Origin: Candidatus Jorgensenbacteria bacterium GW2011_GWB1_50_10
Lineage (GTDB): Bacteria > Patescibacteriota > Minisyncoccia > UBA6257 > GWB1-50-10
NCBI GenBank assembly: GCA_001004105.1
Contig: LCQK01000001.1
Coordinates: forward strand, 102,928-166,927
Direction of reading: 5' to 3'
Length of the DNA: 64,000 nt
Each line of letters begins with the position of its first letter. Positions within the stretch are counted from its first letter, which is position 1. Positions 18,269 to 20,323 of the stretch are shown here, one piece after another. Under the pieces are notes generated by a model that ran no database searches, was not told the DNA's origin, and worked only from the letters and a program-made list of their open reading frames with translations. A program made the position numbers and the translations under genes.

Positions 18269-20323
18269 ATGGACAGGGCCGCCGCCAGGGAGAGAATTGA
18301 AAAGCTGAAAAAACTGATTAACCGCTACCGCTACTCGCGGCTCGTTTTGAACAAGGAAGAAATCTCGCCGGAGACCGAGGATTCCTTAAAAAAGGAGCTT
18401 TTTGATTTGGAGCAGAAATTTCCGGAGCTGGTTACGCCGGACTCCCCAAGTCAGCGGGTCGGCGGCATCCCCTTGAAGGCGTTTAAGAAGGTCCGCCATG
18501 AGGCGCGGATGCTTTCTTTCAACGACGCTTTTTCCGAAGAAGACGTGAAAGATTGGATTACCCGAGTGGAAAATTACCTGGGGCGGAGGATTAAGCGCGA
18601 ATTTTATTCCGAACTCAAAATCGATGGTCTCGCCATTGAACTTGTCTACGAAAACGGCGTTTTGGTTCAAGGTTCCACAAGAGGCGACGGTTTAGTTGGC
18701 GAAGACGTCACTCAAAACCTTAGAACAATAGAAGCAATCCCGCTTTCAATTTCTGGAGGTTCGACCTCCCAAAAATTGAAAAAAAATTCAGGAGGTCGAA
18801 CCTCCCAATATTTAATTCCTAAAAAGCTAATCGTGCGCGGCGAAGTTTTTTTGACCAAAAAGGAATTTGAGCGGATAAACAGGGAGCAGAAAAAGAAAGG
18901 CGAAAAAATTTACGCTAATCCCCGGAACATCGCCGCTGGCTCCGTTCGCCAGCTTGACCCGAAAATCACGGCCGCCCGCAAGCTGGACTCGTATCAGTAC
19001 GCCATTGTGACCGACTTGGGTCAAAGAACCCACGAAGAAGAGCACGAGTTGCTCCATAAACTGGGGTTTCGAATTAATCCCAACAATAAGCGCTTAAATT
19101 CTTTGGAAGAGGTTTTTGAATTCCGCAATTGGTGGGAAAAACACCGCGAAAAACTTCCCTACGAAATCGACGGCACGGTCGTGATCTTGAACGACAACAA
19201 GGTTTTTGAACGGGCGGGAGTGATCGGTAAGGCGCCGCGGGGGGCGGTGGCCTACAAATTTTCGCCCAGAGAAGCGACGACCGTCGTTCAAAGCATTAAA
19301 GTCCAGGTCGGCCGGACGGGAGCTTTGACGCCGGTGGCCGTTCTCTCCCCGGTCGGGGTGGGCGGCATTACGATTACGCACGCTACTCTTCACAATTACG
19401 ATGAAATCCAAAGATTGGGCCTTAAAATCGGTGATACGGTGGTGGTCTCCCGCGCCGGCGACGTCATTCCGCAAATCACCAAGGTTTTGAAAGAATTGCG
19501 GACCGGTCGGGAAAAGGAAATCCATTTCCCGAAAAACTGCCCCGTTGACGGCTCTCGGGTCATGAAGGATGGAGCGATTTACCGCTGTTCCAATCCGAAA
19601 TGCGGCGCCCGTCATCGGGAATCGCTTTATCACTTTGTCTCTCGCGCCGCTTTTGACATCCGCGGTTTGGGCGCGAAAATCATCGACCGGTTTCTGGACG
19701 AGGGACTGATAACGGATGCTGCAGACGTCTTTATTCTAAAAGAAGGGGATATCGCTGTTTTGGAACGATTCGGCGAAAAGTCGGCGGAGAATATCGTGAA
19801 GGAAGTGATGGAGAAAACTCTGGTAACTCTCCCCCGGTTCATTTACTCGCTCGGCATTCTCCACGTCGGTGAGGAAACAGCACTGCTTCTCTCCCGGCGG
19901 TTTCCGGTTTCGACTGTTCGCGGGCTGACTCAGAGATATAAGGATTTGAGCGTCGAGGATTTGATGCAAATTCGCGACGTGGGCCCGGCGGTTGCGAGAA
20001 GTATTTATAACTGGTTTCGCGAGCCGCGCAATTTGAAATTGCTGGGAAAGCTGGAAAAAGTAGGCGTGAAGATTAAGGATGAGAAAACGGCGGGCCAAGA
20101 GTTTGCAGGCAAGGTGTTTATCTTGACCGGCAGCCTCGAGTCGATGTCGCGCGATGAAGCCAAAGAGAAAATTAGGGATTTGGGCGGAGACGTGTCAGAG
20201 ACCGTTTCCAAAAAAACCGATTACGTTGTTACGGGGAGCGACCCCGGCTCCAAATACGAGAAGGCCAAGAAATTGGGCATTGAAATTATTAGCGAGGGAG
20301 AGTTTTTGAAGATGTTAAAATAA
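18269..20323 (+). CDS. ligA: NAD-dependent DNA ligase LigA
   Basis: KIDGLA adenylation motif; OB, Zn-finger, HhH and BRCT regions; 684 aa; contains an in-frame palindromic insertion. Confidence 0.9.
18755..18805. repeat. palindromic mini-element inserted in frame in ligA
   Basis: GGAGGTTCGACCTCC-21 nt-GGAGGTCGAACCTCC; encodes an extra ~22 aa ([22 protein letters not shown]) where E. coli LigA (recalled, not searched) has a short loop. Confidence 0.65.

Follow-up and report, generated by a model that had tools for sequence, protein, structure and literature searches.

The 64,000-nucleotide stretch of contig LCQK01000001.1 of Candidatus Jorgensenbacteria bacterium GW2011_GWB1_50_10 analysed in this study (henceforth the window) carries a short pair of hairpins, at positions 18755-18805, within the reading frame of its NAD-dependent DNA ligase gene ligA. 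The segment is probably a doublet resembling the REPINs (inverted pairs of repetitive extragenic palindromic, or REP, sequences) and would belong to a family that extends across the Patescibacteria, moved by an enzyme akin to the REP-associated tyrosine transposases (RAYTs) and carried by the LigA protein as a tolerated passenger.

At the nucleotide level the ligA element is a 51-base hairpin pair in which two 15-nt arms enclose the 21-nt spacer caaaaattgaaaaaaaattca, and both the palindromic arms and the coordinates proposed in an initial annotation of this DNA were found to be exact. The first arm (GGAGGTTCGACCTCC, 18755-18769, forward strand, translated GGSTS) consists of a 6-bp self-complementary stem and a 3-nt loop and contains the core GAGGT-TCG-ACCTC, while the second (GGAGGTCGAACCTCC, 18791-18805, forward strand, translated GGRTS) is its exact reverse complement, such that the two arms complement each other perfectly even in their asymmetric loops (TCG and CGA); such exact inversion is likewise seen in comF and in the copies of the related contig L001. 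The A-rich spacer between them (CAAAAATTGAAAAAAAATTCA, 18770-18790, forward strand, translated QKLKKNS) is not palindromic and therefore endows the element with polarity; it is homologous to the spacer CGAACATTGATGGTAATTTCA of an intergenic copy, L001-B. When the AT-rich outer flanks are included (TTTCAATTTCT ... CAATATTTAA), the extended element spans 18744-18815 on the forward strand, has 25-nt arms that are 84 % complementary, and accounts for essentially the entire LigA loop between IPL and IPKK; these flanks fit the family-wide consensus AATTT-nn-[core]-nn-AAATT. Allowing up to two mismatches, the 15-mer has 5 matches in the window as compared to 0.15 expected, a number reached by none of 100 shuffled sequences, and all five are confined to two loci, ligA and a comF-type gene.

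The host gene (18269-20323, forward strand) is full length at 684 codons, with all domains intact and none of the invariant residues of LigA missing, and the insertion sits beyond the KxDG adenylation motif (ELKIDG) and ahead of the RGEVF motif. An identical LigA protein is on record for 9 contigs from several sources, among them Candidatus Jorgensenbacteria bacterium GW2011_GWA1_48_13, which rules out that the segment arose as an assembly artefact. HMMER alignment to Escherichia coli LigA (PDB 2OWO) places a 17-residue gap exactly at the element, after AIPLKLHGE, which bears out the E. coli sequence given in the initial annotation; its figure of about 22 added residues was too high, as the actual excess is 17 residues relative to E. 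coli and 13 codons relative to the three closest relatives. In a codon alignment with these three relatives (82, 80 and 75 % identity), all of which share the pilus-ligA-gatC-gatA synteny, the excess is a clean 39 nt; the relatives retain approximately 8 residues in the loop and none of the three possesses a hairpin in ligA. The earlier proposals that the element had been inserted in frame and that it tolerates translation thus hold, given that the closest LigA and ComF homologues are devoid of the segment and that it is read through in frame in an otherwise intact ligA. An insertion shared by every LigA homologue of the clade yet devoid of the palindromic DNA signature, which would have overturned this reading, is not what the homologues show.

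The loop that received the element is the most length-variable part of LigA, ranging from 0 to approximately 30 residues among 120 Patescibacteria homologues. In the AlphaFold model of the protein (mean pLDDT 80.5), the element-encoded residues 164-179 form the only segment of the adenylation (NTase) domain with a pLDDT below 50, the adjoining blocks scoring 88-93, and the element residues are thereby mapped to the only disordered loop of that domain. In all likelihood LigA carries the element as a tolerated passenger, in the form of a disordered, hydrophilic surface loop of 13-17 residues; that it is a functional module is not likely. At the RNA level, the ligA region is predicted to fold as a single strand into a hairpin of approximately 15-19 bp with -30.7 kcal/mol (z = -6.5; none of 200 shuffles folds as well), and the most economical reading is that the disordered loop in the protein would be accompanied by this stable hairpin in the mRNA. 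The halves of the core, read as RNA, are GGAGGU and ACCUCC, which match the Shine-Dalgarno consensus and, at the 3' end of the 16S rRNA, its anti-Shine-Dalgarno partner, respectively; in-gene copies would therefore bring Shine-Dalgarno-like motifs into mRNAs, each paired to a mimic of its own partner.

Two further features of this loop were observed. Many Patescibacteria LigA proteins (P0019, P0024, P0033, P0039 and others) contain at the same position a conserved insert of approximately 25 residues, LLEPEEVEKNLKKLGLNPxxYxL, which could be a different, older acquisition. Furthermore, xNSKF(K/Q)IP, SSKFKIP or NSKLKIP occurs in the element-bearing loop of many LigA homologues, and the two pilin-like open reading frames (ORFs) located just upstream of ligA (17253-17870 and 17867-18265) start with ...NKNSKFKIP... 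and MIQNSKFKIKNS..., respectively; this NSKFKIP-like stretch may be a further case of a short A/T-rich motif turning up repeatedly within coding DNA.

The second locus of the window is a 69-nt (23-codon) composite of three hairpins at 7244-7312 on the reverse strand, with the coding strand GGAAGTCCGACCTCC-C-CGAGGTTCAACCTCC-CAAATATTGACGTCAATTCGCGA-GGAGGTTGAACCTCG. It resides in a comF-type gene (6988-7785, reverse strand) encoding a 265-aa protein that combines a double zinc ribbon with a phosphoribosyltransferase domain, and is translated in frame as EVRPPRGSTSQILTSIREEVEPR. The three hairpins employ three different reading frames: the first shares that of the ligA copy (G-S-T-S-Q-x-L), and the others give EEVEPR and LEVRPP. 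Comparison with the closest ComF homologue (68 % identity), which reads NNEL-GITVQNNNLVRVK where the window protein reads RQCL-EVRPPRGSTSQILTSIREEVEPR-KIGIETNNLVRTK, reveals an excess of 23 codons, or 69 nt, which is the exact length of the composite. A PDB sequence search with ComF returned only a C-terminal match to phosphoribosyl pyrophosphate synthetase, which is uninformative on the insertion site.

The initial annotation had regarded the ligA and comF segments as the same element. Both are indeed of one kind and inserted in frame, and the coding strands of both start GAGGTTCRACCTCC-CAAA(A/T)ATTGA, so that the similarity noted for the spacer starts holds on both coding strands; yet only 41 of 54 aligned positions are identical and the spacers measure 21 versus 23 nt, the two copies being different subtypes as opposed to recent copies of one another. 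Closer counterparts of the comF element are found in other genomes: it is identical at 50 of 53 positions to a copy within the PolX gene of a Wolfebacteria metagenome-assembled genome (MAG), and the three-hairpin composite recurs almost unchanged in an asparagine synthase gene (L125, 4072-6060, reverse strand), in which the element is present at three separate places, each time in sense orientation. Copies of the comF type have a GACGTC centre, corresponding to head-to-head CGTC tags, which is followed by A/T pairs.

The common denominator of these sequences is a 13-nt core, GAGGT-YSR-ACCTC, which is a near-perfect odd palindrome (GAGGTY-S-RACCTC). Species-representative genomes were scanned for two core hairpins separated by 12-42 nt, and such pairs were identified in at least 118 genome stretches as compared to approximately 2 expected by chance according to our own estimate. 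Among the matches listed, and judging by record title, approximately 86 are from Patescibacteria, 11 from Omnitrophota (four MAGs) and 10 from MAGs labelled Gammaproteobacteria or Burkholderiales, the rest being singletons. The core is common to the family and the outer stems and spacers are lineage-specific; the subfamily to which the window copies belong was present in 25 stretches in a metagenome scan. Pooled flanks yield the consensus AATTT-nn-core-nn-AAATT, meaning C-n-n-AAATT beside the stem, and the first six outer stem pairs are Watson-Crick paired in 40-55 % of cases versus 26-32 % expected, with all four pair types represented, which points to a hairpin stem kept by compensatory change.

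Additional copies were found between genes in the contig of a relative (L001, 80 % LigA identity), which harbours two intergenic doublets, positioned 12 nt after a gene for a type II secretion system F protein (T2SS-F) and 10 nt after a pilin gene; the spacer TAAATATTGAgccgtATTCGCGA in this contig is homologous to the comF type and CGAACATTGAtggtAATTTCA to the ligA type. The core is free of stop codons in every frame, with the exception of one frame when the loop is TGA, and gives rise to recurrent peptides according to frame, namely [GR]G[SRP]TS, EV[REQG]P[PLRQ] and R[SF][DN]L. Conservation of the elements operates at the DNA level and not at the protein level.

Besides pairs, the arms form single copies, triplets and tandem arrays. 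In L018, L100, L108, L073 and L122 the bare core is repeated head to tail (repeats of GAGGTTCAACCTCAA, for example), in some cases within open frames. In the Omnitrophota, the core is abundant in four MAGs with other outer stems (e.g., CAATTGTTC-core-GAACAATTG), one of these being the closed 1.43-Mb chromosome CP070780.1 (observation made on L008, L013, L014, L022, L028, L035, L046, L059, L089, L114 and L118), and several MAGs labelled Gammaproteobacteria carry the core as well. On account of these Omnitrophota and Gammaproteobacteria-labelled MAGs, the core is not confined to the Patescibacteria, unless some of the bins are mislabelled.

Location within readable genes is frequent in the family: 59 of 132 sampled pairs are situated within open frames of at least 120 codons; both window copies lie inside ORFs, and the extragenic location that is part of the definition of a REP does not apply to them. 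Hosts identified by Pfam include GatB (three), UvrA (two), Mfd, DnaG, PolX, LepA, ArgRS (two) and ThrRS, in addition to asparagine synthase (AsnB), phosphoenolpyruvate synthase, MurJ, Wzy ligases, a secretin and glycosyltransferases. BLAST comparison among the host proteins matches only the 20-26-residue peptide of the element, and the insertions are therefore independent. LigA itself has been struck at three sites in five lineages, the window included: a Nealsonbacteria LigA (L027, 57.5 % identity) carries a different family member with a 12-nt spacer in the same loop, that of L067 has a member in the zinc-finger loop, and those of L154 and L155 have one in the linker between helix-hairpin-helix motifs. 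Approximately 7 of the 29 hosts with an annotation have DNA as their substrate, although an enrichment in DNA-repair and replication genes is suggestive only, because long ORFs were selected and repair genes are long.

The in-gene copies of the window's subfamily display a uniform orientation. The CAAATATT strand is the sense strand in 13 of 13 independent copies, of which eight are read in frame 0 and five in frame 2, with none in frame 1, which holds a TGA; no antisense copy was present among these 13 even though the antisense frames are open. Of ten copies of the subfamily that lie between genes, eight point in the direction of the adjoining genes. In the window, the ligA copy (forward strand) and the comF copy (reverse strand) are both sense under a GC skew of one sign, which is near zero around comF, and the polarity thus seems, from this one gene pair, to be tied to transcription as opposed to replication. 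The data would fit either selection at the RNA level or insertion into the non-template strand where it is exposed as single-stranded DNA.

A candidate for the mobilising enzyme emerged from the genes that lie between hairpins. Considering all loci, eight ORFs are bracketed by cores, and three of these, from three genomes, are homologous and encode 220-233 aa. The bracketed ORFs in L005, L062 (= L148), L113 and L116 match the Pfam family Y1_Tnp (PF01797, IS200-like) with 29-45 bits against a cut-off of 23, and the sole NCBIfam match of the Y1 proteins is REP_Tyr_transpos, the REP-associated tyrosine transposase (NF047646). The HUH motif, N91-H92-x-H94, is invariant in the Y1 proteins, while Y116 and Y119 are invariant in the six locus-encoded proteins and at least 90 % conserved in 43 homologues. 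An AlphaFold2 model of a RAYT-like protein (pLDDT 91.8) finds its best fold match of the PDB in 4ER8, a complex of the E. coli RAYT with a REP hairpin (E 7.9e-6, TM 0.65, target-normalised), followed by the TnpA structures of IS608 and ISDra2. The bracketed Y1 protein is a distant relative of the RAYTs, not an equivalog. At a threshold of E <= 1e-10, at least 7,809 proteins belong to the RAYT-like family, the named ones of which are from Patescibacteria.

Of the 118 hairpin-selected loci listed, 8 were shown by tblastn to contain RAYT-like genes, nine in all. Four RAYT-like genes are bracketed by GAGGT-YSR-ACCTC (L005, L062 = L148, L113 and L116), two have the variant core GGAGGCCCGGCCTCC just downstream (L031b and L112), and five are accompanied by other cognate hairpins (L031a, L095, L149, L150 and L151). 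The genes of L031a and L095 were considered as partners of the GAGGT core and ruled out, as other palindromes bracket them directly and the GAGGT pair is merely nearby. In a reciprocal test, each of four homologues picked by protein similarity alone proved to be bracketed by a palindrome with a 3-nt loop, one of which is GAGGT-YSR-ACCTC. This tally of genes against hairpins is the pattern expected of co-evolving REP-RAYT pairs. The Y1 HUH class is the only gene class found bracketed by cores, and no DDE-type parent was among the bracketed genes.

Some RAYT-like genes themselves hold hairpins in frame: that of L062 (1752-2450) encodes SEVEPQ and RGSTS, and that of L116 (7137-8000) encodes RGPTS three times. 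In L112 (1402-2073), a copy of the RAYT-like gene is broken up by an array of repeats coding for GGSTS or GSSTS.

Combining these observations, the element would have moved as single-stranded hairpin DNA through the action of a RAYT-like enzyme supplied in trans. Copies that enter genes would be expected to survive only where the core is stop-free in nearly all frames, where they land in length-tolerant surface loops, such as the disordered LigA loop preceding RGEVF, and where they point in the direction of transcription.

Several results weigh against this interpretation. The Y1 proteins attain 21-42 bits against an NCBIfam RAYT cut-off of 80, a sequence and profile search of the PDB with the RAYT-like proteins returned no match, and the present core brackets only about half of the RAYT-like genes examined. 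The 64-kb window, another 9.7 kb of its contig and L001 are all devoid of a RAYT-like gene, and the copy number in the source genome is low, with two diverged loci in approximately 74 kb (5 cores in the window and none in the further 9.7 kb, or approximately one locus per 37 kb). Since the part of the source genome that was read amounts to only these ~74 kb and holds no RAYT-like gene, mobilisation in the source lineage is unproven; the suggestion of the initial annotation that the element is active or recently active is likewise not sustained, as two diverged copies and no transposase gene were seen there. The hairpin tags known from other REPs are scarce: the GTAG head that accompanies RAYT-associated REPs was counted 19 times among 790 flanks and shows no positional peak, and GACG peaks at +9/+10 in only 16 of the 790, the ligA copy being without this tag. 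No target-site signature is discernible at comF when compared with the 68 %-identical empty site, where, at this identity, any duplication is inseparable from the element's own AAATTGG flank. Finally, as the loci were chosen with a pattern that fixes the core, the breadth of the family and the composition of its loop are partly set by the search.

Among alternative explanations, the doublet may be an RNA-level element, kept for a role in the transcript such as mRNA stability, ribosome pausing, or processing by RNase III or another enzyme. The orientation with transcription (13/13 in genes and 8/10 between them), the sense orientation of the ligA and comF copies on opposite strands of what is apparently a single replichore, and the very stable transcript hairpin would all accord with such a role. 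Nevertheless, the antisense strand of the ligA hairpin is equally stable, so that structure alone does not explain the polarity; the functions of the hosts are unrelated, close relatives do without the element in both ligA and comF, and Rfam yielded no family match, only generic long-hairpin microRNA models far below threshold. We regard this explanation as unlikely, while noting that it can coexist with transposase-mediated spread. Quite improbable, in our assessment, is that the core is a DNA motif recognised by the host, either resembling an uptake sequence or serving as the site of a dimeric protein, that is enriched in genome-maintenance genes and spread by recombination. Its near-perfect odd palindrome is what a dimer binding site would be expected to display, and its hosts include LigA (three times), UvrA (twice), Mfd, DnaG, PolX and ComF; moreover, the uptake sequences of Neisseria often form inverted pairs and are biased towards repair genes. 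Natural competence of Saccharibacteria is described in the preprint PMC10187176. This explanation is difficult to reconcile with the conservation of spacers and flanks as whole units, the movement of composites as units, and the presence of cores around Y1 transposase genes, and the repair-gene enrichment on which it draws is confounded by the choice of long ORFs. Furthermore, the density of approximately one locus per 37 kb in the source genome is far below that of known uptake sequences, which occur approximately once per kb.

The perfect 15-nt inverted ends around a short non-coding centre, and the dispersal at unrelated sites, are also reminiscent of the terminal inverted repeats of a DDE transposase, in which case the element would be of the MITE type (transposable elements of miniature size with inverted repeats) and would have been moved by cut-and-paste with target-site duplication. 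Each arm is, however, a hairpin in its own right that also occurs singly, in triplets or in tandem, which fits REP units and not transposon ends; no target-site duplication is demonstrable at the empty comF site, and the bracketed genes are of the Y1 HUH class only, rendering this explanation very improbable. The remaining alternative, a local accident in a hypervariable loop (a chance palindrome or a template-switch duplication) or a linker selected at the protein level for its amino acids, is effectively refuted. It would account for the 0 to ~30 residues seen in this loop among LigA homologues and for the linker-like, Gly/Ser/Thr/Lys-rich peptide, but not for the excess of motif matches in the window, the identical cores and homologous spacers in other genes, intergenic DNA and other genomes, the use of different reading frames, or the covariation of the stem.

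Translated palindromic repeats have precedents, and the family of the present study, hereafter termed the CPR (Candidate Phyla Radiation) family, may be set beside several of them. The Rickettsia palindromic elements (RPEs), reportedly described by Ogata and colleagues in 2000, resemble it by description in that they too are palindromic repeats that have entered essential genes in frame, in a host-dependent bacterium with a reduced genome, and are translated as extra surface segments compatible with protein function. RPE-1 is about 100-150 bp in length, compared with 51-69 nt for the CPR elements, and we know of no transposase for RPEs; the strong sense-strand polarity of the CPR elements is to be set beside them. 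By analogy, the ligA and comF repeats may be viewed as the CPR counterpart of the RPEs.

The REPIN-RAYT systems (REPtrons, as exemplified by E. coli TnpA-REP and 4ER8) share with the CPR family the inverted REP doublets, the single-domain HUH/Tyr (Y1) gene bracketed by cognate hairpins (in related genomes), and the association of different protein lineages with different cognate hairpins, in addition to 4ER8 being the best fold match of the CPR protein. Differences are that the CPR proteins, at ~230-240 aa, have an extra C-terminal helical region as compared to the 165-aa chain of 4ER8, fall far below the NCBIfam RAYT cut-off and are not associated with GTAG, that a large share of the CPR copies is intragenic, and that some of the CPR RAYT-like genes are decorated or destroyed by hairpins.

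Intragenic REP dimers with GTAG or CGTC tags were reported to encode 20-30 aa, often within DNA synthesis or repair genes such as uvrA, uvrB, recB, dnaE, polA and the DNA ligase gene of Opitutus terrae (Di Nocera, De Gregorio & Rocco 2013, PMC3733652). In the same work, RPE-4 and RPE-6 were equated with CGTC REPs, and the latter were reported to be without a dedicated transposase. The CPR family likewise comprises short GC-rich stem-loops, mostly as inverted dimers, which lie mainly between co-directional genes and also wholly inside ORFs, has DNA repair hosts (LigA, UvrA, Mfd, DnaG and PolX) and, in the comF type, exhibits the GACGTC centre followed by A/T pairs that is seen in CGTC REPs. It differs from these dimers in its core, GAGGT-YSR-ACCTC, in a loop of 3 rather than 4-5 nt, in a strong stem of 5-6 bp with an AT-rich extension rather than one of 8-9 bp, in having no GTAG head and a CGTC tag in a subset only (which does not include the ligA copy), and in a host phylum outside those surveyed; unlike CGTC REPs, CPR hairpins bracket Y1 transposase genes. 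Membership of the CGTC REPs, suggested by an idealised unit CGTCAATATTTGG-core-CCAAATATTGACG, was ruled out by the rarity of the tag at a fixed distance and its absence from the ligA copy. Taken together, the lack of GTAG, the CGTC tag in a subset only, the 3-nt loop and the low RAYT score mark the family as a distant relative and not a member of a described one.

PARCELs (palindromic amphipathic repeat coding elements), which the available text of Roeske et al. 2010 (PMC2996958) presents as intragenic tandem repeats encoding an amphipathic repeat protein sequence, are also translated palindromic repeats of small-genome bacteria; going by that description, the CPR elements are set apart in being short, single insertions that are hydrophilic or disordered and frame-independent. 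In the literature searched, which was mostly that outside subscription journals, neither the core sequence nor any link of RAYTs or REPINs to the CPR was found. Translated palindromic repeats and RAYT-REP pairs are already known, and it is this family that is apparently undescribed for the CPR.

Elsewhere in the window, two ORFs are separated at 33047-33084 by a perfect 38-nt palindrome that has no spacer (GTCTTCAAAATCCGTCCAT/ATGGACGGATTTTGAAGAC) and runs into GTTTTGTTTTG; this palindrome, which has the look of a terminator, is unrelated to the hairpin family. Six tRNA genes were identified by Rfam at gathering score, at positions 22760, 22839, 27173, 29349, 30944 and 34175 (window 22760-34245), and no other known RNA family was detected by Rfam over the 64 kb.

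As regards ligA, the practical message is that the gene is intact and that the insert is, according to the model, a disordered surface loop. More broadly, the present analysis adds to Rickettsia and a handful of Proteobacteria a further setting for translated palindromic repeats, the Candidate Phyla Radiation, which makes up a huge and for the most part uncultured share of bacterial diversity and whose genomes are tiny and densely coded, and links these repeats to a candidate enzyme from a large, divergent family of RAYT-like HUH transposases. It offers an explanation for the odd low-complexity peptides (GGSTS, EVEPR, RSDL) in unrelated CPR proteins, which could mislead homology searches and annotation. 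The orientation of the elements and their repeated insertion in LigA, UvrA, Mfd, DnaG and PolX echo an unexplained observation of 2013, and make it practicable to study whether single-stranded DNA exposed by transcription or associated with repair is the target of such repeats. It is conceivable, and we put this forward as a tentative proposal with a greater chance of being wrong than right, that the Patescibacteria own a widespread REPIN-RAYT system whose hairpin doublets enter genes with a polarity set by transcription and recurrently occupy disordered loops of core enzymes, most often of DNA-repair and replication proteins. If true, this system would constitute a general and so far unrecognised source of insertions and length variation in CPR proteins, as well as a natural system in which the target choice of HUH transposases may be tested.

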